64,000 nt of DNA from an uncultured Gemmatimonadales bacterium (GTDB lineage Bacteria; Gemmatimonadota; Gemmatimonadetes; Longimicrobiales; RSA9). The DNA lies in contig CAWAMW010000015.1 of NCBI GenBank assembly GCA_963783305.1, positions 288,001 to 352,000 of the forward strand, in the 5' to 3' direction. The notes under the pieces are model-generated. The model searched no databases and was not told the DNA's origin. It worked only from the letters and a program-made list of their open reading frames with translations. Position 1 is the stretch's first letter. Each line of letters begins with the position of its first letter. Of the stretch, positions 1,095 to 16,835 are shown piece after piece. Position numbers and translations under genes: made by a program.

Positions 1095-1133
1095 TCGGAG
1101 GCTCCGGGGGTGATCCGACCTTCTGAACAGCTT

Positions 1134-1229
1134 TGACACGAAGGGAACGAAGACAACGAAGAACTCGAAGTATTCAGGTCGAAATCTCTGTTCTTCGTGT
1201 ACTTCGACCTCTTCGTGAGCTTCGTGTCA
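1134..1229. repeat. Palindromic element made of inverted 9-bp tandem repeats (nnnACGAAG x4 / CTTCGTnnn x4)
   Basis: TGACACGAAG-GGAACGAAG-ACAACGAAG-AACTCGAAG ... CTTCGTGTA-CTTCGACCT-CTTCGTGAG-CTTCGTGTCA, intergenic. Confidence 0.8.
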
Positions 1230-1280
1230 CGAATTTGTTTTTTGTTTGCGCGTCCTCCGGCCGCTCGCGTCATCTCCGGA

Positions 1281-3299
1281 TCACCCGCCGATCCGTACTT
1301 CCCGCTCTACGCGTCCGCCGCGGGTGCTGAGGACCTCCACCGTCAGGTCGAACGGGTCGGTTTCCGCCGGCACCCGGACTCGGAACGTGGCCGTGGCCGT
1401 CTCCGCGGGGTCGAGCCAGCCGAGGTCGACGGTCTTGTCGCGGAGCGCGGGCGTGGTGATCTCGGCGGCGGGGTCGTCGCCCTCGGTGAGCTCCTCCGGC
1501 AGCTCCAGCCGGACGCGGTCGGGGCGAACGATCTTGACCAGCTGCGCCTGCCGGAGCGCCGTGGGCAGCCGGCCGGCGTTCCGGATGGTCACGTTGATCT
1601 CCCAGGTGACGCTGTCGGCCGACCCGCCGGCCATACGCACCACGCCTACGTCGGCGATCTCGACCCGCGGCAGGTGCTTGGCCATCTCGAGGTTGAAGAG
1701 CGCCTGCTTCTCGACCCAGCCGCCCATCTGGTCGGCGGGGCCGTTCTGGCTGAAGAACTTGGGGTGGAACCCGCCCATCTCCACCGCGCCCAGCGTGGGG
1801 TGCTGGAACGGCTCCCACTCCCGGAACCCGCGGCCGCCGTTGGACTCATCGTCCCAGACCAGGGCGTCGAAGGAGTCCAGGATCCCGTCGCCGTTGTAGT
1901 CCTCCATGGCGCCGCCGTTCCAGAGCTCGTCGCCGTACCAGATGGCGCCGTAGTAGAAGTAGCCGAAGTCGGGGCCGTGGCCGAAGAGGGGCGCGGGCTC
2001 GGTGGGCTCGCCGGACCAGGGGCTCACGGGGTAGCGGGTCATGTACGTCTCGTACACGTCGCCGGCCCAGGGGTAGTGCGTGATGGAGAGCCCCACGCTG
2101 TCGAAGTACTCGTAGAGCGCCAGGTCCTCCGGGTACATGCGCTCCTCCGAGCCCGACGTGGACGGCGGGCGCAGGTGCATGGGCACGCGCGTGTCCATGG
2201 AGTTGGCGACGGAGACGTGCGGCCGCTGGAGCAGCCACATGACCGTGGCCATGGTCTCCGGCTCGCTCAGCGGGTACGCCCCCGCCCCGGACTGCGTGTA
2301 GCCGCGACCCGTGCGGTCCAGCCCTGTGTCGGGACGCCAGTTCTCCGGGTAGTTCCGGTGCAGGTCCAGCCCGCCGATGCCGTCCTCGTTGTAGTCCCCA
2401 TCGCCGTCATTGTCCACGCCCTCGCCCAGCACCACCCAGTCCCCGTCCTCGTCCGGCCGCGCGCGGCGCATGAGACGCCCGGACCCGTCGCGCTCGTCGA
2501 TCAGGTACTCGGCTTCCATCTCCGCGCCCGGTGAGCCCTCCGGCATGTCGGCCGGCCGGAACCGGATGTCGTAGAGGACACCGTCGCCGTCCAGGTCCTC
2601 CGGTGGGTCCTCGTCCAGGAGGCCGTCGCGGTCGCTGTCGTACGGCCGGACGGTGCTCCGGTTCGCCTGCGCCGTGTGCAGGTAGAGGTTGCTGCCGTCC
2701 GGGTTGTTCTCCGGACGGAGGTAGATCGCGTTGTGGTCGAGCAGCGCGGTGATCTCCGGGTCGTGGTCGTAGCCCTCCAGCAGGTGTCGGATCAGCCAGA
2801 GCACGCTCTCCGACGCCGTCACCTCGCCGCTGTGACGACCGCCCTCGAAGAACGCCGCCGGCTTGTCCAGGTCCGACCCCGTGGCCTCGTTCGTCAGCGT
2901 GACCTGCAGGATCGGACGACCCTCGAAGCTGCGACCCACCTCGTACAGCTCCACCAGCCCCGGGTACCGCTCGTTCCAGCGACGCAGCCACTCGTACATG
3001 ACGTCCGCCGTGTGGTAGCGGTCGAACGTCAGCGACTCCCCCGCCTCGTACTCCACGCCCTCGTGACGCACGCGCGGGAAATAGCTGATGCCGTGGCGGG
3101 TGCCGGACACCGTATACCAGGCGCTGTCGCGCTCCGACTCGGCGACGTACGTCGGGGCCACCGCCGCCATGGATGCCGGCCGGAGCGCGGAGGAGGCCGG
3201 CGCAGGGTCGCCCATGCCGGATTGGGCCGCGCAGGCCGCCGAAATCACGGGAACGGCGAGGATGCTGGCGAGGATCGGGAGACGACGGTGTCTGGACAT
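1281..3299 (-). CDS. M14 family zinc carboxypeptidase, secreted or lipoprotein
   Basis: GGRHSGE zinc motif, NPDG, DLHRNYP, PLSEPET; signal peptide MSRHRRLPILASILAVPVISAAC. Confidence 0.88.
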   Translation of the reverse strand: MSRHRRLPILASILAVPVISAACAAQSGMGDPAPASSALRPASMAAVAPTYVAESERDSAWYTVSGTRHGISYFPRVRHEGVEYEAGESLTFDRYHTADVMYEWLRRWNERYPGLVELYEVGRSFEGRPILQVTLTNEATGSDLDKPAAFFEGGRHSGEVTASESVLWLIRHLLEGYDHDPEITALLDHNAIYLRPENNPDGSNLYLHTAQANRSTVRPYDSDRDGLLDEDPPEDLDGDGVLYDIRFRPADMPEGSPGAEMEAEYLIDERDGSGRLMRRARPDEDGDWVVLGEGVDNDGDGDYNEDGIGGLDLHRNYPENWRPDTGLDRTGRGYTQSGAGAYPLSEPETMATVMWLLQRPHVSVANSMDTRVPMHLRPPSTSGSEERMYPEDLALYEYFDSVGLSITHYPWAGDVYETYMTRYPVSPWSGEPTEPAPLFGHGPDFGYFYYGAIWYGDELWNGGAMEDYNGDGILDSFDALVWDDESNGGRGFREWEPFQHPTLGAVEMGGFHPKFFSQNGPADQMGGWVEKQALFNLEMAKHLPRVEIADVGVVRMAGGSADSVTWEINVTIRNAGRLPTALRQAQLVKIVRPDRVRLELPEELTEGDDPAAEITTPALRDKTVDLGWLDPAETATATFRVRVPAETDPFDLTVEVLSTRGGRVEREVRIGG

Positions 3300-3437
3300 G
3301 GTGTCGGTGGCTCGGGTCGCGTGGCGGGCAGGCTGTCCGGGGAGGTTGGGGCGGGCGGCGCGCCGGGGCAAGGTGCGGGCGACCGCCACCCGCTGTCCCC
3401 GTCCGCCATTCCCCTGCCCCGGCTGCCGACGTATGGA

Positions 3438-4535
3438 ATGGCCATGGCGACCATTATCCGGATACGGGAGGTCGGCGCGGAGATCGAAGTCGTTCCGGCC
3501 GTATACGACCCGGCCGTCGTCGAGCATCTCAGAACGATCCCCGGCCGGCGCTGGAGCGCACCCGGGCGCGCGTGGCTCATCCCCCGCACCGCGCAGGGGC
3601 TCGACACGATCCTCTCCCTCCCCGGCGTGAAAATCGATCTGGACCCGGCGCTCGTCCACCTCGTCCGGCGGCCGTACGATCCCGTGGCGCCTCGGGAGGA
3701 CGCCACGCTCCAGCTCCTGCGAAGGGTATCCGAGGAGCTGCGGCTGCTCCGCTACAGCCCCCGCACGCGCAAGCTCTACCTGGGCCATCTGCGGCGATTC
3801 CTCGAACGCCACCCCGCGGCCGCCCACGACCTGACAGCGGGCACGGTGCGCCGACACCTCCTGGAGCTCGAGGCCGAGAACCGCTCCACCTCCTACCTGA
3901 ACCAGGCCCTGAGCGCCATCCGGTTCGCCGCTAAGCTCCTGGGCGCCACCGTCCAGATCGAGAGCGTCGGCCGACCCAAACGCCCGCGCCACCTGCCCTC
4001 CGTCCTCTCGCCCCAGGACGTTCGCCGCATCCTCAAGGCACCCCGCCATCCCCGCCACCGCCTCGCCCTCACACTCGCGTATTCCGCCGGGCTCCGCGTG
4101 GGTGAACTCGTGCGCCTGCGCGTCGGGGACGTCGATTCCGATCGGCGGCTCATCCACGTCCACGAAGGCAAAGGCCGCAAGGATCGGTACACTCTTCTGG
4201 CCGAAACAACCGCCAGGGCACTCTACCCTTTCCTGGATGGCGCCGATGCGAACGACTATATATTCCCCGGCGCCCGCACCGGACGCCACCTCACCGTTCG
4301 CAGCATCCAGAAAGTCTTCGAGCGAGCACTGCGCGACTCCGGCGTCCAGAAGCACGCCACGATCCACACGCTGAGGCACAGCTTCGCCACGCACCTGCTT
4401 GAAAATGGCGTGAGCGTGCGGCATATTCAGGAGCTTCTCGGCCACAGCAGCCCCAAGACGACCGAGATCTACACCCACATCGCCCAGAGCGACCTGCGCC
4501 GAATCACCAACCCCCTGGACGCACCGCTCGACTGA
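3438..4535 (+). CDS. Integron-like tyrosine recombinase (365 aa): HARP-like N-terminal extension, SAM-like domain and catalytic domain; lacks the IntI-specific insertion
   Basis: YSPRTRKLY, SAGLRVGE (R), GKGRKDR (K), HTLRHSFATHLLE (HxxR), IQELLGHSS (H), TTEIYTH (Y), C-terminal ITNPLD; lies next to a cassette array. Confidence 0.93.
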   Translation: MAMATIIRIREVGAEIEVVPAVYDPAVVEHLRTIPGRRWSAPGRAWLIPRTAQGLDTILSLPGVKIDLDPALVHLVRRPYDPVAPREDATLQLLRRVSEELRLLRYSPRTRKLYLGHLRRFLERHPAAAHDLTAGTVRRHLLELEAENRSTSYLNQALSAIRFAAKLLGATVQIESVGRPKRPRHLPSVLSPQDVRRILKAPRHPRHRLALTLAYSAGLRVGELVRLRVGDVDSDRRLIHVHEGKGRKDRYTLLAETTARALYPFLDGADANDYIFPGARTGRHLTVRSIQKVFERALRDSGVQKHATIHTLRHSFATHLLENGVSVRHIQELLGHSSPKTTEIYTHIAQSDLRRITNPLDAPLD

Positions 4536-4567
4536 AGGGTGGATTTATTTCGCCTCCATCAAACATC

Positions 4568-4648
4568 TTAGCGAACACCCATTCGCCAGTCTCACCCAAA
4601 GTCACTACATCATGAACTGGGTTTCGCTAATCCTTTAGTTAAGCGCCA
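4568..4648 (+). other. Candidate attI-like primary recombination site, crossover near G|TT at 4638
   Basis: CGCTAAT-CCTTTA-GTTAAGCGCC; 4638-4647 is the exact reverse complement of the cassette 1 end (5323-5332) with no repeat body upstream; imperfect inverted repeat TTAGCGAACACCC (4568-4580) / GGGTTTCGCTAA (4619-4630). Confidence 0.75.
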
Positions 4649-5050
4649 TGCGCGCAGATGAAGTCAACTGGAGCTTGGTCAGCGCGAGCCACGGGCATGG
4701 TCGGCTGTCGGAGGTCGCTTGCAGCTGCGTCAGGCGTGCGTTGACAGGACAGAAGCGCGTGGCGGGCCTAGATGGCTTGCCAGACATGCCGGATTCGCGG
4801 CTGACGCGGCATTCGATGCCGGCGAGGTCGGCGCGGAACACGCTGGCACCTGTTCGGACTGCGGTCGCTCGAGTACCGTCGGCCGACGATGCGGACCGGG
4901 CTCGGTGAGCGTTGCGAAGTTTCGAGGACGTTGCGCCTGGAGGTCGCGGAGCGTCGGATCGCGGTCTGGACGCTCCGATGCGTGTGGCGACGCAAGTCAG
5001 CCTGAGCTCCGAACGCCGTGTAGCTGAGCTCGACACGTCGGGGGACGGAA

Positions 5051-5332
5051 GTGAATGTCTTCAGTCCGTGCGGTTCTGACGTTGAATACTGGGTCGATGC
5101 TGAGCCGCCGGTCCTCCGTGCGCTCCGCGAACGGTACACTGAGTTTGGCCTTCCGCCGTACCAGGTCGTCTTCGTAGCGGTGCGCGGGGAGATTGGGCCG
5201 GTGTTGGACTGCGGCTTCTGTACTGAGTACGACGGCAGTTTCAAGGTGGAGGAACTGGTCGAAATGGACTCGCCGGGCACCGGGGAGTGCGAGACCGAGA
5301 TCGGTGGCCACTCAGGGAGAACGGCGCTTAAC
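5051..5332 (+). CDS. Cassette 1 hypothetical protein, probably a lipoprotein with a frameshifted 5' end; the frame runs on into repeat 1
   Basis: EVNVFSPCGSDVEYWV...PYQVVFV...EYDG is protein-like; an upstream frame carries ACGDASQPE. Confidence 0.45.
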
Positions 5333-5481
5333 AAACGGTTGGCGCCTGCGCGGCCTGCGGCCGCTCCGGAGAACCCGCCGCGGCCGTACTGGGCGCTGGT
5401 GAGGGGCGTGAAGTTTCGAAGGCGGTCGCGCGCTGGAGGTTGTCGGAGCGGCGGTTCGCCAACCTGGAAACGTTATACGCC
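5323..5481 (+). repeat. attC-like repeat 1
   Basis: GGCGCTTAAC AAAC GGTTGGCG...CGCCAACC TGGAAAC GTTATACGCC. Confidence 0.92.
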
Positions 5482-5506
5482 AGGTGAACGAGTATTGGGG
5501 GGTGCG

Positions 5507-5947
5507 GTGACTGAGTACGTTCTCAATGGTTGGCGCGTGGAGCACGACGCCGGTGCCACGACAGAAGCGTTGAAGCGAGCTCAGTATCGGGGCCCTGAGA
5601 GCTGTGGGTGCCTGCCCTGCCAGAACTTCGTCGCAATGCGTTCCGAAGCGTTCCCGCGCGAGTTCATGGAACTGCTCGGTGAGCTGGGAATCCCGCCGGT
5701 TTCGGAAGTCGAGGTCTATCACAACGCACGGCTTGAAAACGGGAGGCACTCCTACGGAGGGTGGTTCCACTTCGTAGGAAGGGTTGTCGAGGGGCCGGAC
5801 GGGGTCGTAGATCTGGGCAACGGTTTCCAGTTCTACTTCCGGAACGACGCCCATCTTATCTCGAAGGAGATAACCGAGCGCCCCGTGGCACAGTTGGAAT
5901 TCTACTGTGAGCTGCGCTGGGGAATCGCAGCCCAGGAGGCGCTGTAG
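5507..5947 (+). CDS. Cassette 2 hypothetical protein (CxCxxCxNF and GWFHFVG motifs)
   Basis: GTG start just after repeat 1; ORF fills the cassette. Confidence 0.75.
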   Translation: MTEYVLNGWRVEHDAGATTEALKRAQYRGPESCGCLPCQNFVAMRSEAFPREFMELLGELGIPPVSEVEVYHNARLENGRHSYGGWFHFVGRVVEGPDGVVDLGNGFQFYFRNDAHLISKEITERPVAQLEFYCELRWGIAAQEAL

Positions 5948-5992
5948 ATCGGCCCTTCGGGGGAGGCGGGAGGGTCGGGAAGGGGTTCACCC

Positions 5993-6148
5993 GGCGTATA
6001 ACAAACGGTTGGCGCCTCCGCTCGCTACGCGCGCTCCGGAGAACCCGCCGCGGCCGTCTGGAAGCTGGTGAGGTGAGTGAAGGTTCGAAGGTGCTCGCGC
6101 GCTGGAGGTGTGGCGCGGCGGGTCGCCAACCTGGAAACGTTAAGCGGC
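5993..6148 (+). repeat. attC-like repeat 2
   Basis: GGCGTATAAC...GGAAACGTTAAGCGGC with conserved body. Confidence 0.92.
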
Positions 6149-6157
6149 ATTGGCAAC

Positions 6158-6666
6158 ATGCTCAAAGCCAACTTGAAGTTTAGTCGGGACGAACCAGAAC
6201 AGGTGGCTTTTGGAGATCACCTGCGCTGGGTCGAGTTGTCGCCCGTTGACGTTCGACCAACTAGCGCCTTGGCTAAGCCCTTTGAGGTGTTTGCTGAGTT
6301 AGTGAAGGATTCCGTCATACCGGGATTCATTCATGGCGAAGGACGGTTGGAAGAACACGCCGGCACCGATTCATGGACCGTATCGGCTCGATGCCTTGTC
6401 GGCCGACGATTTCACTTCAGTCCCTCGGACAAGGTTCGACGAAGCCCTCGAGGACTGGCTTGAAGGGGGAGACTGCGCTTCGACTCCGGAGCTCCGATGG
6501 AGGTGAGGGAGAAGGTCAGGTCGATGTTGAGCGCGATCCCCAAAGAAGCGCCGTGTTACGAGCTACAGAAATCGCTTGGACGGAAGCGATCACGAGTTTG
6601 CGTTTGTCCTTTGGGAGTTCAAGGAGTTCTGTTTTCCAGATGAGGCGAATGGTGTGCTCTGGCTAG
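6158..6666 (+). pseudogene. Cassette 3 hypothetical gene, apparently frameshifted
   Basis: ORF from ATG 6158; protein-like segments IHGPYRLDALSADDF and HEFAFVLWEFKEF continue in other frames. Confidence 0.4.
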
Positions 6667-6703
6667 TGGTTTGGGCTGCGGATTAAGGGTGTCGCGCACC
6701 AAC

Positions 6704-6862
6704 GCCGCTTAACAAACGGTTGGCGCCTGCGCGGCCTGCGGCCGCTCCGGAGAACCCGCCGCGGCCGTGCTGGGAGCTGGTGAAGGTTCGTGAAGTTTCG
6801 AAGGCGGTCGCGCGCTGGAGGTATCGGCGCGGCGGGTCGCCAACCTGGAAACGTTAGCCGTC
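6704..6862 (+). repeat. attC-like repeat 3
   Basis: GCCGCTTAAC...GGAAACGTTAGCCGTC. Confidence 0.92.
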
Positions 6863-6881
6863 ATTCCGCGATAGGAACTGC

Positions 6882-7109
6882 ATGAGTGTTCTGCAGAGGC
6901 TTGAGCACAGGCGATGGGTGGTGTGGGTCGCCTGGCCGATTTCGGCTTTAGTTCTCCCGATCGCGATTGTTCGAACAGTTGCCGCAGTCCGAGGTTGGGG
7001 TCTCTACTACGCGTTGGACTTGGGCAAGGCACTGCAGATGGGGATCATCATGTTTGGGCCTCCGGTGTTGTTTGAAGTACTGGTCAGGAAAGGGCGAAAC
7101 AACGGCTAA
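6882..7109 (+). CDS. Cassette 4 small membrane protein
   Basis: Two hydrophobic segments; the TAA stop lies in the TAAC of the next repeat. Confidence 0.7.
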   Translation: MSVLQRLEHRRWVVWVAWPISALVLPIAIVRTVAAVRGWGLYYALDLGKALQMGIIMFGPPVLFEVLVRKGRNNG

Positions 7110-7256
7110 CAAACGGCCGGCGCCTGCGCTCCCTTCGGTCGCTCCGGAGTACCCGGCCGTCAGGCGAGCGGATGGTTGGAAAGAAGTCGAGTCGGCGGTG
7201 CCCAAGAGTTCTGGAGGGGTGGAGGCCGGGTCGCCAGCCTGGAAACGTTATGTGCC
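7101..7256 (+). repeat. attC-like repeat 4 (divergent body)
   Basis: AACGGCTAAC AAAC GGCCGGCG...CGCCAGCC TGGAAAC GTTATGTGCC. Confidence 0.88.
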
Positions 7257-7274
7257 ACACGCGGTGAGGTACGG

Positions 7275-7727
7275 ATGGGCAGCCGAACAGGGATCGGTGC
7301 GGTGACCAAGAGCAGCGTCGTAGCAAATGCCCAGAGGCTTGAAGAGGCATTCGGTTCGTGGCCCTCGTTCCACGATGCCGAGGTCCTCACCATGCGTTTG
7401 GATCGGTCCGGTGCCGTTGGGCCGACCCTGGACGCTCAGGTCTATGTGTTCGAAATGACCTCCGAGGTCGATGCGGCGGGCTTCTTCGTGTTGAAGAACC
7501 AAGTCGTCGTGAGTTTGAGGTTCTCCAATGTCGCTCTGGAGAGACTCCGCTGGTTCAACGAGCAGAACGCTCTCTCAGAACTATTCATTGATGAGATCCC
7601 TGACGAGTCCAACGAGGGCCGAACTCTAGCCGTTCGTTTTGAGTCCAGTTATGGCGTAGAGGCGAGTTTCCGCTGTGGCGCAATTGAGGTTTTGGAGGTC
7701 GAGCCGTATCGACCGGAAAAGCAGTAA
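7275..7727 (+). CDS. Cassette 5 Imm50-family immunity protein
   Basis: FGSWPSFHDAEV, FNEQNAL and FESSYGVEASFRC motifs. Confidence 0.78.
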   Translation: MGSRTGIGAVTKSSVVANAQRLEEAFGSWPSFHDAEVLTMRLDRSGAVGPTLDAQVYVFEMTSEVDAAGFFVLKNQVVVSLRFSNVALERLRWFNEQNALSELFIDEIPDESNEGRTLAVRFESSYGVEASFRCGAIEVLEVEPYRPEKQ

Positions 7728-7749
7728 GGCTGGGGCTTCTGCAGCGTGC

Positions 7750-7906
7750 GGCACATAACAATCGGTTGGCGCCTGCGCGGCCTACGGCCGCTCCGGAGAA
7801 CCCGCCGCGGCCGGGTAGGTGCTGGTGAGGGAGTGGCAGTTTCGAAGGCGGTCGCGCGCTGGAGGTTTCGGCGCGGCGGCTCGCCAACCTGGAAACGTTA
7901 TCTGCC
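7750..7906 (+). repeat. attC-like repeat 5
   Basis: GGCACATAAC...GGAAACGTTATCTGCC. Confidence 0.92.
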
Positions 7907-7930
7907 AGTCAGCACAGTAAGAGAGATCAG

Positions 7931-8116
7931 ATGCTTTGGGACTTGCTTCAGCAGGTGCAGATCGGGCGAACGGAGCGGCACGCCGTAAATGTTGATGAGC
8001 GGCTTGCGGCTCTGGAGCGGCAGTTGGACAGAAACAGCAAGGTCTTGGTCGAGGTGATCAAATACCTTGAGAAGCGGGATGGCCGTGATCTCGACGGCGA
8101 CGGGAAGATCGGCTGA
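7931..8116 (+). CDS. Cassette 6 small coiled-coil protein with a C-terminal DLDGDG motif
   Basis: 61-aa ORF fills the cassette; purine-rich RBS. Confidence 0.72.
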   Translation: MLWDLLQQVQIGRTERHAVNVDERLAALERQLDRNSKVLVEVIKYLEKRDGRDLDGDGKIG

Positions 8117-8139
8117 ACTGCCGTGGTACGGGGCTGACC

Positions 8140-8298
8140 AGCAGATAACAAAGGGTTAGCGCCTCCGCTCGGCTGCGCCGAGCTGCGGAGAACCCGCCGC
8201 GGCCGTCTGGAAGCTGGTAAGCGTTGTGAAGATTCGAAGGCGGTTGCGCGCTGGAGGTTACGGCGCGGCGGGTCGCCAACCTGGAAACGTTATACGCC
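8140..8298 (+). repeat. attC-like repeat 6
   Basis: AGCAGATAAC...GGAAACGTTATACGCC. Confidence 0.92.
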
Positions 8299-8349
8299 AT
8301 TTGGCCACTTGATACCGTCGAGAGGTTCATGGGCTCCTCAGGCGGGAGG

Positions 8350-8862
8350 ATGCGAGGTGAGCTGGTGGCTTTGGGGGTGGCTGTCTTTTGCGCAGCCGGA
8401 TGTGAAGGTCAAGCCGCACCTGTGCCAGAGGTTTCGCGCGAACACCCGGTCATCCCGGTCGATAGCGGCATCGTCAGGATCGAGTCCGGCGGAAGCGTCT
8501 TCCGGATCAACGTTGAAATTGCCGAAACGCGGGAGCAACAGAGCACCGGGCTCATGGAGCGGCGGGCCCTCGCAGCGGACGAAGGCATGTTGTTCCTGTA
8601 CGCCGAGGAGCAAGCCGATTCGGATTCCTTCTACATGTTTCGAACGAGAATTCCACTAGCGATCGCCTTCGCCGATTCAACGGGTCAAATTGTGGCGACG
8701 CGGGAGATGGAGCCCTGCCCTCACCCGGTTGCCGATTGGTGCGAGCAGTACGCCCCTGGGAGTTCGTACCGCTCAGCCCTCGAAGTAAATGGTGGTTACT
8801 TTGACAGCAAAGGCATCGGTGTCGGGGACCGAATCGTTCTTGAAAAGAGGTTCGGGCAGTGA
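8350..8862 (+). CDS. Cassette 7 DUF192-family lipoprotein
   Basis: VEIAET...GLMER...EGMLF...FYMFRTRIPLAIAF...ALEVNGG; lipobox AAGC. Confidence 0.88.
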   Translation: MRGELVALGVAVFCAAGCEGQAAPVPEVSREHPVIPVDSGIVRIESGGSVFRINVEIAETREQQSTGLMERRALAADEGMLFLYAEEQADSDSFYMFRTRIPLAIAFADSTGQIVATREMEPCPHPVADWCEQYAPGSSYRSALEVNGGYFDSKGIGVGDRIVLEKRFGQ

Positions 8863-8875
8863 AAGAGGGCCAAAC

Positions 8876-9032
8876 GGCATATAACAAACGGTTGGCGCCT
8901 CCGCTCGCTGCGCGAGCTCCGGAGAACCCGCCGCGGCCGTCTGGGAGCTGGTGAGGGGCGTGCGGTTTCGAAGGTGATCGCGCGCTGGAGGTTGTGGCGC
9001 GGCGGGTCGCCAACCTGGAAACGTTAAGCGCA
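8876..9032 (+). repeat. attC-like repeat 7
   Basis: GGCATATAAC...GGAAACGTTAAGCGCA. Confidence 0.92.
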
Positions 9033-9041
9033 ATTCCGGAC

Positions 9042-9365
9042 ATGAAAACTGCTTGGGTTCTGATCGTGGGTGGCCTGCTCCTCATCGTAGGGGCTTACGC
9101 TGCCTGGAAGAACCAGATGGACTGGGGCCTTCGTGAGTGCTGTAATACAGGATCGATCGGGCCTGATCTACTCATGTTCGGAATGCCATTCCTAATCGGA
9201 GCGCTCTTGTTCTGGTCGGGTTGGGGTTGGCGGCAGTGCGTGCGTGGCGGCGAGATTCGAGGATACTGTAAGGCAGACGCCGGAACTGCGCTTAACAAAC
9301 GGTTGGCGCCTGCGCGGCCTGCGGCCGCTCCGGAGAACCCGCCGCGGCCGTCTGGGAGCTGGTGA
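9042..9365 (+). CDS. Cassette 8 small membrane protein (stop falls inside repeat 8)
   Basis: MKTAWVLIVGG..., two hydrophobic segments. Confidence 0.6.
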   Translation: MKTAWVLIVGGLLLIVGAYAAWKNQMDWGLRECCNTGSIGPDLLMFGMPFLIGALLFWSGWGWRQCVRGGEIRGYCKADAGTALNKRLAPARPAAAPENPPRPSGSW

Positions 9366-9444
9366 AGGTTCGTGAGGTTTCGAAGGCGGTCGCGCGCTGG
9401 AGGTATCGGCGCGGCGGGTCGCCAACCTGGAAACGTTAAGCGCC
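9287..9444 (+). repeat. attC-like repeat 8
   Basis: TGCGCTTAAC...GGAAACGTTAAGCGCC. Confidence 0.92.
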
Positions 9445-9491
9445 ATGCTCGACTGTCTGCCCGGGGTGCGATGGTCTCGGAGTGGAGGGCG

Positions 9492-9806
9492 ATGAGGAAG
9501 GTTTATTGGACTGCGTACGCCCGGGGCGATCACTACCTAGCTACTCAACAGGTGCTCGATCGGATCAGCGCGTGGGGTATTCTAGCCCAGGTGAATCGGT
9601 ATTCAGACCTGATGGTCAGTGCGGTGGTCGAGGTCGCGGAGGAACGTCTCGGACCCCTGCTTGCCGCGCTTGAAGAAATTGTTGCAGTCGAGCAGGTGGA
9701 AGATCAGGTAGTGGGCCCAGACCACCCCTGCATGGTCTACTTGAACGTGCGCATGCAGGACGGCAAAGGCGATCTGAGTATCGAGACACCGGCTGTGCCC
9801 GGCTAG
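9492..9806 (+). CDS. Cassette 9 hypothetical protein
   Basis: GGAGGG RBS then ATG; ends GKGDLSIETPAVPG. Confidence 0.72.
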   Translation: MRKVYWTAYARGDHYLATQQVLDRISAWGILAQVNRYSDLMVSAVVEVAEERLGPLLAALEEIVAVEQVEDQVVGPDHPCMVYLNVRMQDGKGDLSIETPAVPG

Positions 9807-9832
9807 GGAGCGTGAGCCCGAGGTGGTCGCAC

Positions 9833-9989
9833 GGCGCTTAACAAACGGTTGGCGCCTGCGCGGCCTGCGGCCGCTCCGGAGAACCCGCCGCGGCCGTCTG
9901 GAAGCTGGTGAGGGTCGTGAAGTTTCGAAGGCGGTCGCGCGCTGGAGGTTTCGGCGCGGCGGGTCGCCAACCTGGAAACGTTAACCGCC
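9833..9989 (+). repeat. attC-like repeat 9
   Basis: GGCGCTTAAC...GGAAACGTTAACCGCC. Confidence 0.92.
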
Positions 9990-10050
9990 ATGTTCCGCTC
10001 GAGGCTTCTGTAGCAGATTAGGGTAGAGAATTCTACGTAGGGGGTCGCCC

Positions 10051-10275
10051 ATGTCTAATGTGCCAATCGAAGAGCTTCTGAAGCTGTCTGTTGCGGAGCG
10101 GATTCAGTTGGTGGAGGACCTGTGGGACAGCATCGCTGCGGACGCCGACGATTTCCCGCTGACTGACGCGCAAAAGGCGGAGTTGGACCGCCGGCTGGAA
10201 GAGCACGAGGCGGACCCAGGCTCCGCAATACCCTGGGCAGAGGTTCGGGAGCGGCTTTACAAGAAGTACGGGTGA
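10051..10275 (+). CDS. Cassette 10 addiction-module antitoxin (TIGR02574-type)
   Basis: LSVAERIQLVEDLWDSI...ELDRRL...IPWAEV. Confidence 0.9.
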   Translation: MSNVPIEELLKLSVAERIQLVEDLWDSIAADADDFPLTDAQKAELDRRLEEHEADPGSAIPWAEVRERLYKKYG

Positions 10276-10568
10276 ATCGCCGGTTTGAAGTCCGACCGCA
10301 GGCGGACGCGGAGCTCGATGAGGCGGCCGCCTGGTACGCAGCTCGATCGCGGGGACTCGGAGCAGAATTCGTTCGGGTGATTGATGCAGCGTTCGCGTCG
10401 ATCGAGAGGAATCCGCGGCAGTTTCCGGTCGTGTACAAGGACTTCCGGAGGGCCGTCGTCCGGCGCTTTCCATATGCAATCCTATTTACCGTATCGGAAC
10501 CCGAGATCGTCATTTGGTCGGTCTTCCACTCCCGGCGTGATCCGAAGCGGTGGCAGAGCCGCGGTTGA
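10272..10568 (+). CDS. Cassette 10 RelE/ParE-family toxin
   Basis: AELDEAAAWY...GLGAEF...RRFPYAI...VFHSRRDP; GTGA overlap with the antitoxin. Confidence 0.9.
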   Translation: MNRRFEVRPQADAELDEAAAWYAARSRGLGAEFVRVIDAAFASIERNPRQFPVVYKDFRRAVVRRFPYAILFTVSEPEIVIWSVFHSRRDPKRWQSRG

Positions 10569-10593
10569 TAGCCTCTGGAGGCTGGCAGAACAC

Positions 10594-10750
10594 GGCGGTT
10601 AACAATCGGTTGGCGCCTGCGCGGCCTGCGGCCGCTCCGGAGAACCCGCCGCGGCCGTGTTGAAGCTGGTAAGGGGAGAGGTGTTTCGAAGGCGGTCGCC
10701 CGCTGGAGGTTTCGGCGCGGCGGGTCGCCAACCTGGAAACGTTATGCGCC
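10594..10750 (+). repeat. attC-like repeat 10
   Basis: GGCGGTTAAC...GGAAACGTTATGCGCC. Confidence 0.92.
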
Positions 10751-10812
10751 ATTGCACCGCTGGGCGTACGGCTGGTGAGGATCGTCAGGAGAGACCAAGC
10801 TCAAGGGACGTG

Positions 10813-11970
10813 ATGCCGCGAGAAAAGCAGTGCAACGTGGTTTTGGACGCGAACATCCTCGTGGCCGATGTTTGGATGGCGGGCCGGAGCTTCTCCTATC
10901 TGAGGCGTCATCGATTTCTTGAGCATCGACCGGTAGTGCCTCACGTCGCGTACTTGGAGACGCGAAACCAGCTGAAGTTGAGAGCAGAAGCGCTGATCGC
11001 TCACCGAACGGCCGAGGAAGGTGGTTCCCACGGCAACACCGTTCGGCTACGGCGGCTCTTCAATTGTGAGGATTGTCCGACTCCGGAGCATTGGGATGTC
11101 GATCGAGCTGCGTACAGAAATGGGACGATTTTGCTTCTGGGGGTCGCTGGACGAGTTCGGCGGGATGGTCCTCGACGCGCCCGACGTCGAGATCAGCGAA
11201 ATTACTAACCGTTCTATCGCCCGGAAGCGCCGCATTTTCGCGCGGTGATAAAGGTGTTTCAGGGATACCTCTCATCTGGCTCGGGACGCTCGAATTGGCT
11301 ACACCCGGATTGGTCGTGTCTCATTCGTCACTGCCAGATACCAATGACTTCTGTTGACAAGGGCGGGGTGGAACCGCATCCAGAAATAGTCAGCCGAAGT
11401 GGCGGAGCGGACTGGCGGCGAATTGGAAAATGTTGTTTCACAAGTCCTTGGACGACTTCATTGCCCACTTCGAGTTCTGATCGGTGCCGCGAGTTCGGAG
11501 GCCCTCCAGAGAGCGCTGATCTCGAAAGCACGTTCTCTGGCTTCGACGTTTGGGATTGGCTCGAATCCGAGTTCCCTCGCATTTTCGGCGGCGGAGATGA
11601 ACTTGACATGGTCCAATGGGCCGGCTTTCCGACCCCCGCCTGAAGCGCCGGTTCTCCACAGCGTAGAGCAACTCATTAGCCTGGACATCGCGCCGGGTCA
11701 AGTATCTTCATGAAGACGTGTACCGGTGTGTACTGTGATTTTTCCTTCGTTGGCAATTTCGAGGCTTCGATCGGCTGACTATGACGCGGACTCTGTAGTT
11801 CATCCGAATCAACGCACATGGAAGCGACGAAAGCGATCCTTTCTGGACTGAGGTCGGCCTTCAGGGAGTCGGCACCTGTCGCTAATAGCAATAGATCTCG
11901 ATGTGCGAACGCAAGCTGTTGAGGCCTTACTTCTACCGCAGCCGCTGGAGCACTGGAAGACCTATGAGGG
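10813..11970 (+). pseudogene. Cassette 11 PIN-like domain protein, multiply frameshifted; 3' end approximate
   Basis: VVLDANILVAD...VVPHVAYLE N-terminus; RSIARKR, GDKG and LIWLGTLE segments in successive frames. Confidence 0.55.
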
Positions 11971-12058
11971 AGCGATTCAACGCCTGGAGCAGGTGAGGAA
12001 CGAAGTGGAGGACGCGAGGACAGCATTTTCAGAGGGTTTGAATCAGGATGGGAGCAAC

Positions 12059-12217
12059 GGCGCCTAACAAACGGTTGGCGCCTGCGCGGCCTGCGGCCGC
12101 TCCGGAGAACCCGCCGCGGCCGTCTGGAAGCTGGTGAGGGTTCGTGAGGTTTCGAAGGCGGTCGCGCGCTGGAGGTTATCGGCGCGGCGGGTCGCCAACC
12201 TGGAAACGTTATCTGAA
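12059..12217 (+). repeat. attC-like repeat 11
   Basis: GGCGCCTAAC...GGAAACGTTATCTGAA. Confidence 0.92.
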
Positions 12218-12234
12218 ACCCCTTAGGAAAGCGG

Positions 12235-12657
12235 ATGGCTGAGACTGACGGTGGGGAAATCTGGTTCCTGAATCGTGGCCTCGTCGTGCTGCGGCCGAAG
12301 CAGCCGTTCGTCGACTGGGTGCGGGAAGCGGATCCGGGACCGGGACCGCCAGTGAGTGAGGAGGTCGCGGGGAAGGCGGTGGAGGCGTTCCTGATCCCGC
12401 AGTTCGATATGACCCCGGATTCGGAAGCGTGGATCCGGGACAATTTCGATCTGATGTTCGAGATCGCTCTGGACAGCTGGTATACGGAGCCGGCGTTATG
12501 GCCGAAGAACCGGGACTGGAAGGAGTTCAACCGCTGGTTCAATGTGGAACTCATTGACGTGGCCTGGGATCTCGTGAATCAGCCACTTTCGAGCGAGCCG
12601 CCGCAGGGTCCAGCAGATCGGGCGGGTGGGAACGGGGCTTCAGATAACAACCGGTGA
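12235..12657 (+). CDS. Cassette 12 conserved hypothetical protein
   Basis: NRGLVVLRPKQPFVDW...FEIALDSW...LWPKNRDWKEFNRWF; AGGA RBS. Confidence 0.8.
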   Translation: MAETDGGEIWFLNRGLVVLRPKQPFVDWVREADPGPGPPVSEEVAGKAVEAFLIPQFDMTPDSEAWIRDNFDLMFEIALDSWYTEPALWPKNRDWKEFNRWFNVELIDVAWDLVNQPLSSEPPQGPADRAGGNGASDNNR

Positions 12658-12797
12658 GCGCCTGCGCTCCCTTCGGTCGCTTCGGAGTACCCCGCTCAAG
12701 AACATGGTGCCGATCGGGGCTGCGGGTAGTTTCGGAAGGGAGCGGCGCCTGGTGAGGTGGCGGAAGCGGGGTCGCCAACCTGGAAACGTTAAGCGCA
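12639..12797 (+). repeat. attC-like repeat 12 (divergent body)
   Basis: TTCAGATAAC...CGCCAACCTGGAAACGTTAAGCGCA. Confidence 0.88.
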
Positions 12798-12849
12798 ATC
12801 ACTTCCGGATAGCGGGTGCCGAGAGCCGGAGTAAACTGGGGAGTCAGAT

Positions 12850-13203
12850 ATGGACTGGCGTTTGATGATGATGGCCGGAATGGCGCTGCTGATCATGATC
12901 TGGTTCGGCATGGATGCATATCTACGAATCAGGGCCCTTTCGCGTGGGGTAGCGCTGGAGGATCAGGGGGCGGCGAGTGTCTCCCATGTGTATGTGGTCG
13001 CGGCGTGTCGGATCACTGTAGTACTCGGAGTTCCGGCCTTCGTGATCGCGTACGGCGCCGGGGCGGACATCATGTGGGCTGTGGCGGGTCCTCCGGTCGT
13101 CCTCCTCACTTGCGGCTTCGTTGAGTGGGGGACAACGCGTTGGGTCTTCGATCATGATCGACAACAAGCTGGCAGTGTGGACCATAAGCGTCTTGGTGGG
13201 TGA
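12850..13203 (+). CDS. Cassette 13 membrane protein
   Basis: Three hydrophobic segments, GGGGAG RBS, stop just before the repeat. Confidence 0.72.
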   Translation: MDWRLMMMAGMALLIMIWFGMDAYLRIRALSRGVALEDQGAASVSHVYVVAACRITVVLGVPAFVIAYGAGADIMWAVAGPPVVLLTCGFVEWGTTRWVFDHDRQQAGSVDHKRLGG

Positions 13204-13204
13204 C

Positions 13205-13362
13205 TGCGCTTAACAACTGGCTGGCGCCTACGCGGCCTACGGCCGCTCCGGAGTAACCGCCGGCATCCGGCGAGGTGGTGGTGAGGGGCGGGAAGTTTCG
13301 AAAGTTCGCGAGTTGGTGAGGTCGTGGAGCGGCGGTTCGCCAGCCTTTGAACGTTATGAGCC
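13205..13362 (+). repeat. attC-like repeat 13 (divergent body)
   Basis: TGCGCTTAAC AACT GGCTGGCG...CGCCAGCC TTTGAAC GTTATGAGCC. Confidence 0.88.
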
Positions 13363-13390
13363 ATGCCCGACGGCAGGGGAGTGAGAGCAA

Positions 13391-13645
13391 ATGATGAGGC
13401 TTCGCCCTGACTTGCTGGTGGTCTTTGCCGTGGTAGCGGCAACAATCACGATGTTCGCGCTATTGCGGTTTTCGGACTGGGAGCGGACCACGGTGGTCGG
13501 GGTTTCGTCGTTAGTCATTGTGATCCCCCTGCTCATCAACAGCCAGCTTGTGCTAGGACGGAAACGCGCCCGTTCTGAGGAGCTCATGAGGGAGATCGTC
13601 AGCGAGGGACGCGAGGTCGAGCTAGAACGAAAGGATGGGCCGTGA
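13391..13645 (+). CDS. Cassette 14 small membrane protein
   Basis: Two hydrophobic segments; ORF fills the cassette. Confidence 0.7.
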   Translation: MMRLRPDLLVVFAVVAATITMFALLRFSDWERTTVVGVSSLVIVIPLLINSQLVLGRKRARSEELMREIVSEGREVELERKDGP

Positions 13646-13656
13646 AAGGCGGGCAC

Positions 13657-13666
13657 AGCTCATAAC
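13657..13666 (+). repeat. Terminal half-site; no repeat body after TAAC
   Basis: GCTCATAAC (13658-13666) is the reverse complement of GTTATGAGC (13353-13361). Confidence 0.75.
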
Positions 13667-14030
13667 GCAGCATGCGAGACAGGGGGCGGTGCCACCCAGC
13701 GAAGCGGCTCTGTTGATCGACCGCGTTCTCATGCACGACAACCTGCCCCAGCGGTATGGGACACAGTTCAAAATGGCGTAGGGACGCTGGGTGCTTCATC
13801 CGGTAGAGGATGAGGACGGACTGGAGGAACGGCGGAGATCAATGGGCCTTCCATCCATGGACGAGTACATGCGCATGATGGAGGAAGCGTACGGTGCGCC
13901 CGTTGTAAGGCAGCATAGCGACGGGAAATAGAGAGGGAAACGGTTGAGCCCCTGACCGTGGGCGGCATATTTTGGCGGACGACACGTGATGCAGCAGGTC
14001 CACGGGCCTCGGACCGCAAGGAGATATCGA

Positions 14031-14540
14031 ATGGGCATCGAACGTTACCGCCTCGGGTCCTTCATACGCGCGGGCGCCGTCGGCTTGCTTGTCGTGGGAC
14101 TGGTTGGATGCGGGAAAGGCCAGGGAGACCCGACACAGCCGGAGGTCCATGCGCCCGCTGAGGAGCTCGAGGGGACATGGAGCTGGGTACGGTCCGTCGA
14201 TGTGAACACCCTGGATCTCCACACTCCAGGCGCCGACGATTTCCAGGCAGAGCTTGTCTTCGTCGCCGACTCCGAGCGGGAGGGGAGTTACGTGTACCGG
14301 CGTACGGGAGCCCCGGAGGTAAACGGTCGCTTCGGTATCGGCTCGGAGGATTCCCCCGGGAATGACTTCATCGCCATCGACCACCCCATCGATTTCCTGG
14401 AGAGCCACGCGTGGGTTGTGGCAGGAACGGACAGTCTGTGGCTGGGTGGCGTGTTCGAGAATGGCTACAACTCCCTGTACGCGCGGGTTTCTGCTTCGCC
14501 ATCCCCAGATTCCTCGTTGCCGGCTCAGAAGGGATTGTAA
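14031..14540 (+). CDS. Hypothetical lipoprotein
   Basis: AAGGAG RBS; lipobox LVGC; LEGTWSWVRS. Confidence 0.7.
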   Translation: MGIERYRLGSFIRAGAVGLLVVGLVGCGKGQGDPTQPEVHAPAEELEGTWSWVRSVDVNTLDLHTPGADDFQAELVFVADSEREGSYVYRRTGAPEVNGRFGIGSEDSPGNDFIAIDHPIDFLESHAWVVAGTDSLWLGGVFENGYNSLYARVSASPSPDSSLPAQKGL

Positions 14541-14602
14541 GAGCGAGAAGTATTGGCGCAACGCTGGAACGTCAAGCGCAATTAACGTGAGGAGGCGCGG
14601 TC

Positions 14603-15190
14603 ATGGATAGGAGTCGCTGGATTGGAATCGCTGCGCTGGTGGCCGCCGTCAGTTGTGGCCCGACCTCCGAGGAAGAGCCGATCCGGGCAGAACTACCTGA
14701 GAGCGAGTCCACCGCTGAAGCTCGTGTTGCACCTGTTCAGACGGCGACCGACGCCGGCTGGGAGGTCGACTTCAGCAGCTATGGGCCCGTCCCGCTGGGC
14801 ATCGCATTCATGGAGGCGAATCAGGCGGCCGGAGGCGTGCTCGAGTCTCCAGGGTCAATGGAGGGTTGCGAGACCGTCCATGTGTCGGAGGGGCGGGAGA
14901 GGGTTGGGCTGATGGTCGTTGACGGGCGGATCACCCGTGTCGATGTCTACAACCCTGAGATCACCACGGCACAGGGCGCCAGGATCGGAGACAGCGAGGA
15001 GCAGATCAGAGCCCTATACCCCGAGAGCCTCGAGGTCCGACCTCACAAGTACACGGATGGAAGCTATCTGATCGTCACGCCTCCGGGCGCAGATCGGTTT
15101 CGGCTGGTCTTTGAAACGGCACGAGGGACGGTCCAGACGTTCAGAGCGGGTGTGCTGCCCGAAGTGGAATGGGTAGAAGGGTGCGCCTAG
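14603..15190 (+). CDS. Hypothetical lipoprotein
   Basis: GGAGG RBS; AVSC lipobox; ends HKY...VFET...VEWVEGCA. Confidence 0.8.
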   Translation: MDRSRWIGIAALVAAVSCGPTSEEEPIRAELPESESTAEARVAPVQTATDAGWEVDFSSYGPVPLGIAFMEANQAAGGVLESPGSMEGCETVHVSEGRERVGLMVVDGRITRVDVYNPEITTAQGARIGDSEEQIRALYPESLEVRPHKYTDGSYLIVTPPGADRFRLVFETARGTVQTFRAGVLPEVEWVEGCA

Positions 15191-15529
15191 ACGGCTGTTC
15201 CGGTGGTGAGGTCGCTGTAGGTCCGAAGGTGCTGGAGCCCCGAACCAGCGTTCGGCGGCGCACGGACCTCACTGGTAGTTACGGAAAGGCTTCGCTGATG
15301 GAGACGCGAGACCCGGTGGTTGAGTATCTGGACACGTCGGTTCTATGGTATGGCGAAGGCGATGGACGTGACTCGGATCATCGTGGATGGAGCCCGAGCG
15401 TGTGCCCAGACGCGCTATGAGCTCGAGCCGCCCGGTGGCCGCAGTTTCGAAAGCCACGTCGCCGAAGTGTTGGAGGTGAGCGGCGGCAGGATCACTGCGC
15501 CTGGCATCTACTTCGACAGCGCACCCCTT

Positions 15530-15569
15530 CGCTCCCTTCGGTTGTTGTGGAGTACCCGGCCGGCAGGCG
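15530..15569 (+). repeat. Degenerate remnant of a repeat-4-type body
   Basis: 35/40 identity to 7127-7166 by manual alignment. Confidence 0.75.
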
Positions 15570-15692
15570 GATCGGTGGCTGGGAGTGTGCGCATGCCCGG
15601 AAATCGGACCGTTCGAAAGGTGGCCGCTCGAGATGATCGATCCTACATTCTCACCATCGATAGGCCGATTTGAACCAGCGAGCGGAAGGCAC

Positions 15693-16247
15693 ATGAGCGC
15701 TTCACCCGCGGACCGGCTGAACACGATCCCATTCGCCATAATGGCGGGTGGGTGGCTCGGGCCCCTCCTCATGTTCTGGCTCTACGTCTGGGGGCCGCTT
15801 CGGCCATATTCGTATCCTCCCGGCCGCCTTCTTCCGGGCCCTTCTTTTGCGCTTCTCGTGGTCGGTTGCGCTGCCGTGGGGTGGGCGCTGCCGCGCCGGT
15901 ACTTCCGGATTCACCGGTTCGAACGCACCGGCCGGCTGTACGAAAGGCTCGGCGTCCGCGCGTTCCGCCACGTGGTCCCCGATGGCGACCTCATCAACCG
16001 ATGGGTGCGGCGTTCCATTCCCGGCTACCGGGTGGTCCGGGGCAGGCGTGCGGTCGCGGCTTTCGTGGCCAGGACCGAGCGAAGCGAGCGCGGCCATGCG
16101 GTTCTGCTGATGCTGGGTGTGGTGTCGGCGGCGTACGCGTGGACCCTGGACTGGCGTGTATGGGCGCTGTACCTCACCGCCGGCAACCTCCTGGTCAATC
16201 TCTACCCGATCCTGCTGCAGCGGTACACGCGGAGCCGCCTGCATTGA
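15693..16247 (+). CDS. CrtO-like (glycosyl-diaponeurosporenoate acyltransferase family) membrane protein
   Basis: LYERLGVRAF, ERGH and NLLVNLYPILLQRYTRSRL. Confidence 0.7.
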   Translation: MSASPADRLNTIPFAIMAGGWLGPLLMFWLYVWGPLRPYSYPPGRLLPGPSFALLVVGCAAVGWALPRRYFRIHRFERTGRLYERLGVRAFRHVVPDGDLINRWVRRSIPGYRVVRGRRAVAAFVARTERSERGHAVLLMLGVVSAAYAWTLDWRVWALYLTAGNLLVNLYPILLQRYTRSRLH

Positions 16248-16287
16248 GACATGGCCGTGACAAACCTCGGACGAAACGAGAAACCGG

Positions 16288-16803
16288 ATGATTAGAACAG
16301 GACTGCTTGGTATTCTGCTGGTCCTGTCGGTCGGAGCATGTGCGCACGGCTCCAGCGAGGGGGCGGAGCCAGCGGGCCTGCCGATGTGCGCAGAAGACGT
16401 GGTGGGCGTCCGACCTGAGATGCTTCAAGATCGCAGCGCCTCCGAGATCAAGGAAACGATAGCGTCCCTGGGCTGGATCGCGATCGAGAGCGGCTCCGAG
16501 GTGGTTGCTGTTGATCGCCCCCCCCGATTGGCCAACACGGGGAAAGTGCAACGTGCGCTCGTCAGCCACTTTCCGACTGATCTTCGGGATCGACGGATTG
16601 GCGGGAGCGTCACGTTCTTCGTCTGGCTCGACCCTGAGGGAAACCTGGTCCGCAAGGCGATCGCCAAGGGGTCCCGGTATCCGGCGTTCGACCGGGCGGC
16701 TGCGAATGTCGTCTCCGTCATGGAGTTCAGCCCGGCCGCCACCGAGACGTGTCGCGTGGCCTTCTGGAATGAGCTGGTCGTGAATTTCGAAGCGCACCGG
16801 TGA
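16288..16803 (+). CDS. Lipoprotein with a TonB C-terminal-like domain
   Basis: VGAC lipobox; FP..LR...IGGSV...SRYPAFDRAA...MEFSPA. Confidence 0.72.
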   Translation: MIRTGLLGILLVLSVGACAHGSSEGAEPAGLPMCAEDVVGVRPEMLQDRSASEIKETIASLGWIAIESGSEVVAVDRPPRLANTGKVQRALVSHFPTDLRDRRIGGSVTFFVWLDPEGNLVRKAIAKGSRYPAFDRAAANVVSVMEFSPAATETCRVAFWNELVVNFEAHR

Positions 16804-16835
16804 TGCTGGGGAGGTTCCGTAGGGGGAGTGAGGCC

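Follow-up and report, generated by a model that had tools for sequence, protein, structure and literature searches.

A 64,000-nucleotide stretch of contig CAWAMW010000015.1 from an uncultured Gemmatimonadales bacterium (assembly GCA_963783305.1, positions 288,001 to 352,000), referred to here as the window, carries an intact tyrosine recombinase gene that heads, on the same strand, an array of 14 cassette units. In the reading favored here, to which we give a probability of roughly three in four, the cassettes of this array are captured and reshuffled by the neighboring recombinase, an enzyme without the I2 insertion of the integron integrase IntI, which would act on a folded single strand at G|TTA within a site unlike the attC site of integrons. 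The locus appears to work like an integron, yet it is not an IntI integron, its enzyme falling outside IntI and its sites outside attC. Its strongest marker, absent from an initial annotation of this DNA, is the pairing of the two ends of each cassette over 15 bp with a fixed mismatch at position 11.

The initial annotation had reported an intact recombinase, a lone GTTA 103 bp downstream on the same strand, and 14 cassettes with 13 repeats. All catalytic residues of the recombinase (R220, K245, H310, R313, H336, and Y345; PF00589) are indeed intact, and the G of the first GTTA, at 4638, is the 103rd base past the stop codon. The count of 13 intact sites (TAAC...AACGTTA, each 150-153 nt measured from R'' to R') and 14 units also stands, with two corrections: unit 1 is a composite that contains an extra, decayed site, and the last unit has no intact site behind it. 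This decayed 14th site was detected with nhmmer (E 8.5e-6), pairwise alignments agree, and comparison with an intact copy on another contig of the same genome, C16, shows cassette 1 to be decayed in its 5′ part. The anomaly, which spans 4638-5035, may stem from decay or from an assembly error. A detector of site geometry, requiring TAAC, a short spacer, a perfect stem of at least 7 bp, a longer spacer, and GTT, recovered 10 of the 13 sites within 4536-13700. It found none elsewhere in the window, some 50 kb searched on both strands, and 200 shuffles never yielded more than 1. The complementarity of cassette ends that had been noted from the start extends to 14 of 14 units, where true pairs match at a mean of 8.4 of 9 variable positions, against 3.8 in 182 wrong pairings. 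The GC content of the 14 units (0.55-0.65) lies under the ~0.69 of the large contigs. A host within Gemmatimonadota is also probable from the organisms named for some of the best homologues.

End pairing was characterized in a set of 120 cassettes from 30 loci, 111 of which have unique ends, with ends paired on positions 5-10 only. Positions 12, 13, 14, and 15, which were not used in this choice, pair in 106, 100, 102, and 94 of the 111, respectively, with letters that vary. Position 8 is a G in 104 of the 111 left ends, and position 11 combines a left-end A with a G in the reverse-complemented right end in 107, a mark that is also present in 14 of 14 units of the window. Other wobble-type mismatches at positions 5-15 place G-T on the bottom strand in 32 instances and on the top strand in 3. 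In IntI cassettes (n = 20), by comparison, end pairing fades past position 8 and the position-11 mark occurs in none. The signature of the class is a short and a long spacer without an L-box bulge, combined with 15-bp paired ends that carry the fixed A/G mismatch at position 11, and the end signature provides a simple and specific search handle. Since the two ends of a cassette meet only in the excised circle, a folded single-stranded circle junction would best explain their pairing.

Within the sites, the stems covary: in an alignment of 40 sites, pairing holds for 85.9% of cells and two-sided changes occur at 19 of 30 pairs, a level reached in 0 of 500 shuffles but one that overstates the covariation, because the structure was drawn from one aligned member and the rows are related. 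RNAalifold recovers the inner stem independently. A detector of canonical attC (5-nt spacers, L box with one extrahelical base) gave 0 matches in 12 of 12 arrays headed by HARP-scoring recombinases, the window included, and does find sites at IntI loci, upstream of the gene. The entry site of this lineage contains an inverted repeat of 8-9 bp that ends 7 nt before GTTA, with different letters in genomes G006 and G005; the repeat is not class-wide, because it is significant in 7 of 23 sites only.

The conclusion that the neighboring recombinase is not an IntI is supported by several comparisons. Alignment with an IntI opens a single 41-residue gap where the insertion sits, and the distance from K..R to HxxRH is 59 residues, compared with 96-102 in 29 IntI loci, in agreement with the initial statement that the insertion is missing; the same distance is 58-66 residues in 37 of 38 HARP-scoring proteins, the remaining one being not measurable. 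The IntI model TIGR02249 gives 201.5 bits against a cut-off of 265, in a match split into two pieces, and the protein also lies below the curated cut-offs for XerC (174 of 335 bits), XerD (168 of 330), and the XerA-type NF040815 (213.8 of 220). The initial annotation had asked whether the protein groups within IntI; in a 53-row IQ-TREE phylogeny with the insertion columns removed, the IntI clade (12 rows) has an ultrafast bootstrap (UFBoot) support of 100 and the window protein lies outside it. In a 200-row tree the IntI clade has an SH-like support of 0.998, while the nodes that unite the insertion-less groups in the 53-row tree are weak (42-66). The predicted structure (mean predicted local distance difference test score 92.8) has VchIntIA (2a3v) as its nearest solved structure in Foldseek and XerA and VchIntIA as its nearest in VIA-align; the ESM Atlas returned only unnamed clusters, under 0.9. 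A tblastn search of the window's genome (G000) found this recombinase gene and two Xer-like genes and nothing further, and TIGR02249 has no match in this genome, which is 96% complete. A scan of genome contigs with the single recombinase protein gave 11 loci, mostly distant.

The extra N-terminal domain is HARP-like by sequence and by fold likeness, as had been proposed. The family profile of the domain (A2) matches the HARP domain of SMARCAL1 (4o66) at E 9e-5, and Pfam HARP (PF07443) matches 9 of 29 homologous N-terminal domains (best 2e-6), the window copy on its own being unmatched. The top fold match is the N-terminus of T4 UvsW, at a modest Z of 6.0 (root-mean-square deviation 3.6, 65 aligned), and Foldseek with the N-terminal domain alone gave no match at E 0.001 or better. 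The accessible text of PMC4666394 describes HARP as a module that binds DNA junctions and links it to UvsW; the domain may play such a role here.

The same enzyme might instead perform ordinary double-stranded recombination of the Xer type, with two strand exchanges, in which case the paired ends and hairpins would be binding arms or relics of cassette making. The fixed G8 and A11 have the look of an arm that is read as sequence, folding energy favors neither strand, and IntI retains such ancestral activity according to the accessible part of Escudero 2016 (PMC4792948); furthermore, the window enzyme scores higher against archaeal XerA than against IntI, with PDB 4a8e first. What makes this explanation unlikely is that positions 5-7, 9-10, and 12-15 vary between cassettes yet pair within each, that mismatches lean so strongly toward bottom-strand wobbles, that neighboring sites differ around the core, and that stems covary. 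Recombination on a folded bottom strand fits both the mismatch bias of 32 to 3 and the covariation, though not the folding energy.

The initial annotation had also asked whether homologous recombinases are linked to such arrays. This was examined in 211 loci with a recombinase match, drawn from the genomes of relatives and from metagenome and viral contigs; these loci are kin and were chosen by search rank. Among HARP-scoring loci with at least 4 kb downstream, the window excluded, 11 of 13 have at least two co-oriented sites (7 of 9 at a stricter score), which bears out the link. One HARP-scoring locus, L038, has no sites, and in another (L215:1188-2678, genome G278) the HARP recombinase has two sites upstream in a divergent layout. 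At least two sites of this type were found in 0 of 25 IntI loci downstream and in 0 of 14 upstream, and the site model R1 has 0 matches in 26 IntI loci. The cassette left-end signature lies within 500 bp past the stop codon in 22 of 41 loci of the clade, 0 of 38 IS91-type loci, and 1 of 28 IntI loci. By plain DNA search, the site is present in 8 of 60 relatives, namely 6 of the 14 with a strong recombinase match and 2 of the other 46, all of them kin and not independent. Insertion-less loci in which HARP was not detected have at least two sites downstream in 8 of 60 cases and upstream in 5 of 62, and many of the others are partners of IS91-type transposases, so that the missing insertion alone does not predict an array. 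HARP is not required for an array either, since relatives without a detected HARP domain (L032, L031, L217, L123, L043, and L124) head the same arrays. At further insertion-less loci without HARP (the viral contigs L135, L153, and L167, as well as L069 and L048), the arrays lie upstream on the opposite strand.

These comparisons narrow the initial proposal of a distinct gene-capture platform. The non-IntI enzyme and the non-canonical sites stand, and three of the four differences then listed do not define the class: co-orientation of recombinase and array is known for true IntI according to the accessible part of Cury 2016 (PMC4889954) and is lost in the divergent L215, the sites detected in relatives' arrays are mostly about 80 to 200 nt long, and relatives without a detected HARP domain head the same arrays. 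Site length, co-orientation, and HARP, which all vary among relatives, were dropped as defining features.

It is decidedly improbable that the array consists of atypical attC sites on which a canonical IntI or the host XerC/D acts in trans, with the adjoining recombinase as a passenger. This account can draw on the IntI genes that score above cut-off in 12 of 61 related genomes, four of which (G032, G019, G005, and G015) hold both enzymes, and, in the window's own genome, on the two Xer-like genes, a second array without a recombinase, and the completeness of 96%. However, no IntI was found in G000, G006, G014, or G017, canonical attC geometry is absent from the HARP arrays and present upstream of IntI loci, model R1 is silent at IntI loci, and the entry signature occupies a constant position downstream of this enzyme. 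In eleven IntI regions of relatives (L223-L233), many of them on short contigs, neither type of array was found.

Some insertion-less relatives serve IS91-type elements instead, with no array present. A transposase motif lies downstream in 31 of 34 IS91-type loci and in 0 of 35 loci of the window clade, the IS91-linked insertion-less recombinases form a separate clade in the trees, and no Y2/HUH transposase was found downstream of the recombinase in the window. A sister insertion-less clade paired with IS91-family Y2 transposases is seen at L037:7563-9637 and also in L236 and L239. In L037 the IS91-type element ends in a hairpin that is followed by a cassette-type left end, and on two Bacteroidota plasmids IS91-type elements either adjoin cassette-type units or come immediately after the gene that follows the recombinase. 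IS91-type elements may target these arrays.

The cassettes evidently move, as three of them recur elsewhere with the same ends and other neighbors. The entire 441-bp cassette 12 has a 91% identical copy in genome G032, where the comparison of cassette order proposed initially places it at position 2 instead of 12, and the toxin-antitoxin cassette 10 recurs end to end in G032 (74%) and G006 (70%). The copy of cassette 1 on C16 is followed by a different site. It belongs to a second array of the window's genome (C16:793780-801031; L020:7780-15031) with 9 model matches, in which no recombinase was found and where a copy of the entry site (last 33 bp, 91%) stands ahead of a cassette at 794912-794944. 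The genome as a whole has 25 site-model matches over four contigs, C12 and C14 included. Near-identical copies of cassettes 12 (window 12188-12792) and 7 (8373-8864) occur on contigs of another study's runs.

Could the repeats be terminator-like or repetitive extragenic palindromic (REP)-like elements between which genes move by RecA recombination, with no site-specific enzyme? Many of the sites are 85-97% identical over 150 bp, enough for homologous recombination, and the sites follow genes and are GC-rich hairpins. This leaves the cassette-specific paired ends, the G|TTA boundaries, the entry site, and the link to a single clade unexplained, and a search of window 3000-17000 against Rfam gave nothing at E up to 1, so that we hold this explanation to be highly improbable. 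In related loci Rfam found a group II intron in 8 and nothing else; group II intron and IS110 insertions lie in or beside arrays of the class at L123:14136-14395, L235:12233-16015, and L238:14929-15987. Arrays can be long: at G014:C35:1011-44243, 37 pattern matches extend across 44 kb downstream of an enzyme of this type, in a genome where no IntI was found, and G019:C2:383306-442988 is a very long array of the same class with more than 30. The genome-wide pattern search was used for these two arrays only and is no test of co-occurrence, because its gap range misses the window's own sites (0 in G000).

Under folded single-strand recombination by the neighboring enzyme, the bottom strand of each site would fold into the R stem, an asymmetric loop (6 versus 3 nt), an inner stem of 8 bp that lacks the attC bulge, and a three-way junction, and it would be cleaved at the GTTA core. 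Recombination of two folded sites would excise the cassette as a circle bearing its downstream site. In the circle the cassette's own ends would meet, so that the R stem would grow to about 15 bp, with position 11 always a T-G wobble. The linear array would guarantee a match at positions 1-4, 8, and 11 only, which would favor integration over excision. The circle would then join the entry site at 4638 by single-strand exchange, with replication resolving the junction. Strand choice and the block to a second exchange, which depend on I2 and extrahelical bases in IntI systems, would here be the work of the offset inner stem together with the wobble. The class does not require HARP, which may help to bind the branched site.

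Several points weigh against this mechanism. The top strand folds more stably in 9 of 13 sites in linear form and in 6 of 13 in circular form, the covariation is inflated as described above, and decay of the unit beside the entry site is unexpected at what should be the newest position. No informative junction of an excision circle was found in the contigs of four public runs, the listed joints lying within repeats. The incompleteness of the genome, the selection of loci as kin by search rank, the array-free IS91-type relatives, and the mere 8 of 60 "short" relatives with enough downstream DNA that have at least two sites all count on the same side. The literature adds two objections, in so far as the accessible parts of the papers go: I2 is held to be necessary for cassette capture (Escudero 2020, PMC7790495), and insertion-less recombinases near attC were concluded not to be IntI (Cury 2016, PMC4889954).

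The class reaches plasmids that carry resistance genes. Plasmids of Chryseobacterium and Rufibacter encode full-length relatives of the recombinase, at the head of arrays whose cassettes have the same ends. On a clinical plasmid of Myroides odoratimimus (L239:7001-8208, NZ_CP013691.1), tet(X2) occupies a 1208-bp unit between two intact sites, with ends that match at 10 of 10 positions and carry the position-11 mark; by these sequence features it is a cassette of this class. In pHH1107 and in an Acinetobacter plasmid, the start of tet(X3) follows a truncated recombinase relative by 190 bp; the unit (L234/L237:5880-7089) has the position-11 mark and only 7 of 10 end matches, and tet(X3) is likely the first cassette there. 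The two tet(X) loci become homologous precisely from the G of GTTA onward. That tet(X2) and tet(X3) would be cassettes bears on where these tigecycline-resistance genes come from.

Integron searches would skip the class because they define the enzyme by the I2 insertion. The expectation that IntI and attC models miss it is partly supported, by the canonical-geometry detector and TIGR02249. The odds seem to us evenly balanced that these loci form a second integron class, distributed over Gemmatimonadota-like bacteria, Bacteroidota, and some phages, which would use folded single-stranded DNA without I2 and a 15-bp end stem with a fixed wobble, and which might be the sister or ancestral state of IntI and the native vehicle of tet(X). 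A second, overlooked route to gene capture on folded DNA likely exists. A targeted literature search, which reached few subscription papers and excluded tet(X), found no prior description of this class.

The features of the locus are collected in the table. Pfam assigned Imm50, DUF192, and the toxin-antitoxin pair among 16 cassette open reading frames (ORFs) and had no match for the rest, and PADLOC matched 0 of the 16 cassette proteins. The sigma-70-like match was seen once, against 0.2+/-0.5 in shuffles, and may be due to chance because it lies within conserved coding sequence. Past the array, site fragments occur at 14559-14586, 15204-15238, and 15526-15589, with a GC content of 0.63-0.65, which suggests an array tail decayed out to about 16-17 kb. 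On the other side, divergent housekeeping neighbors encode an M14 carboxypeptidase and a nitrilase-family hydrolase (window 126-3299, minus strand), and a domain scan of the neighbor genes found nothing indicative of a mobile element at the left edge of the locus.

Table. Features of the recombinase locus and cassette array, in window coordinates.
Feature	Position	Strand	Remarks
Tyrosine recombinase ORF, 365 residues	3438..4535	+	HARP-like domain, Phage_int_SAM_4, and Phage_integrase; without IntI (I2) insertion
HARP-like N-terminal domain, about residues 5-75	3438..3677	+	Profile, Pfam, and fold evidence
Weak sigma-70-like match in recombinase 3′ end	4399..4427	+	Candidate cassette promoter, points at array
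Entry (attI-like) site	4568..4648	+	8-bp inverted repeat 4568-4575/4623-4630, 7-nt spacer, G|TTA at 4638
Decayed region	4638..5035	+	Decayed first unit (4638-4839), decayed 14th site (about 4829-4980), decayed 5′ part of cassette 1
Cassette 1, intact 3′ part	5035..5332	+	94.7% over 300 bp to C16 array cassette with different neighbors
Site 1	5326..5478	+	
Cassette 2	5472..6002	+	Unknown protein
Site 2	5996..6145	+	
Cassette 3	6139..6713	+	Unknown; reading frame seemingly broken
Site 3	6707..6859	+	
Cassette 4	6853..7110	+	Small hydrophobic protein
Site 4	7104..7253	+	Divergent type
Cassette 5	7247..7759	+	Imm50 immunity protein (PF15594)
Site 5	7753..7903	+	
Cassette 6	7897..8149	+	61-residue unknown protein
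Site 6	8143..8295	+	
Cassette 7	8289..8885	+	DUF192 protein (PF02643)
Site 7	8879..9029	+	
Cassette 8	9023..9296	+	Small hydrophobic protein
Site 8	9290..9441	+	
Cassette 9	9435..9842	+	Unknown protein
Site 9	9836..9986	+	
Cassette 10	9980..10603	+	Type II toxin-antitoxin pair (PF09720 antitoxin and ParE)
Site 10	10597..10747	+	
Cassette 11	10741..12068	+	Fragmented reading frames
Site 11	12062..12214	+	
Cassette 12	12208..12648	+	441-bp unit
Site 12	12642..12794	+	Divergent type
Cassette 13	12788..13214	+	Small hydrophobic protein
Site 13	13208..13359	+	
Cassette 14	13353..13666	+	Ends in TAAC, no intact site behind

Among known systems, sedentary chromosomal integrons share with this locus a tyrosine recombinase, a single entry site, tandem GTT...AAC cassettes, hairpin-forming sites, toxin-antitoxin cassettes, and enzyme-free satellite arrays. 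The inverted-integrase integrons of Treponema are especially close, co-orientation being known for some IntI in the accessible parts of Cury 2016 (PMC4889954), where IntI is defined by its insertion, and of Ghaly 2022 (PMC9668308); the latter, together with Wu 2013 (PMC3607928) and Nemergut 2008 (PMC2426708), covers true IntI in its accessible text. Unlike these integrons, the window enzyme has no I2, lies outside the IntI clade, and has a HARP-like extra domain, and the entry site of its lineage carries an inverted repeat. The sites of its class have spacers of 4/7 nt and a perfect 8-bp inner stem, whereas attC has spacers of 5/5-6 nt and a bulge, and its cassette ends pair over ~15 bp with a fixed A/G at position 11, whereas those of IntI pair over about 8 bp without the mark. 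What is accessible of Escudero 2016 (PMC4792948) and Escudero 2020 (PMC7790495) treats I2 as necessary and poses the problem of its origin, with the former describing I2 and attC as a chicken-and-egg problem and the latter stating that intermediates are lacking. An insertion-less sister enzyme with its own folded sites would make this question directly testable.

The "integron-like" recombinases, including the IS91-type, are close kin of IntI and resemble the window enzyme in combining SAM_4 with a catalytic domain that lacks the IntI insertion. The accessible portions of the 2019 preprint (Smyshlyaev 2019, 10.1101/542381) and of Smyshlyaev 2021 (PMC8138268) describe this protein subgroup, which includes IS91 and IS3 members that lack the insertion, and link no cassette arrays to these members; the window clade also differs from the IS91-type partners in having no transposase motif downstream. 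XerC, XerD, and XerA likewise have an insertion-less catalytic domain, and the action of Xer on folded single strands of CTX phage, described in the accessible part of Escudero 2020, is a precedent for Xer-type enzymes on folded DNA. Unlike Xer, however, which the window's genome encodes separately in its own two Xer-like genes, the window recombinase appears to have as its substrate an array of unrelated genes rather than a single dif target.

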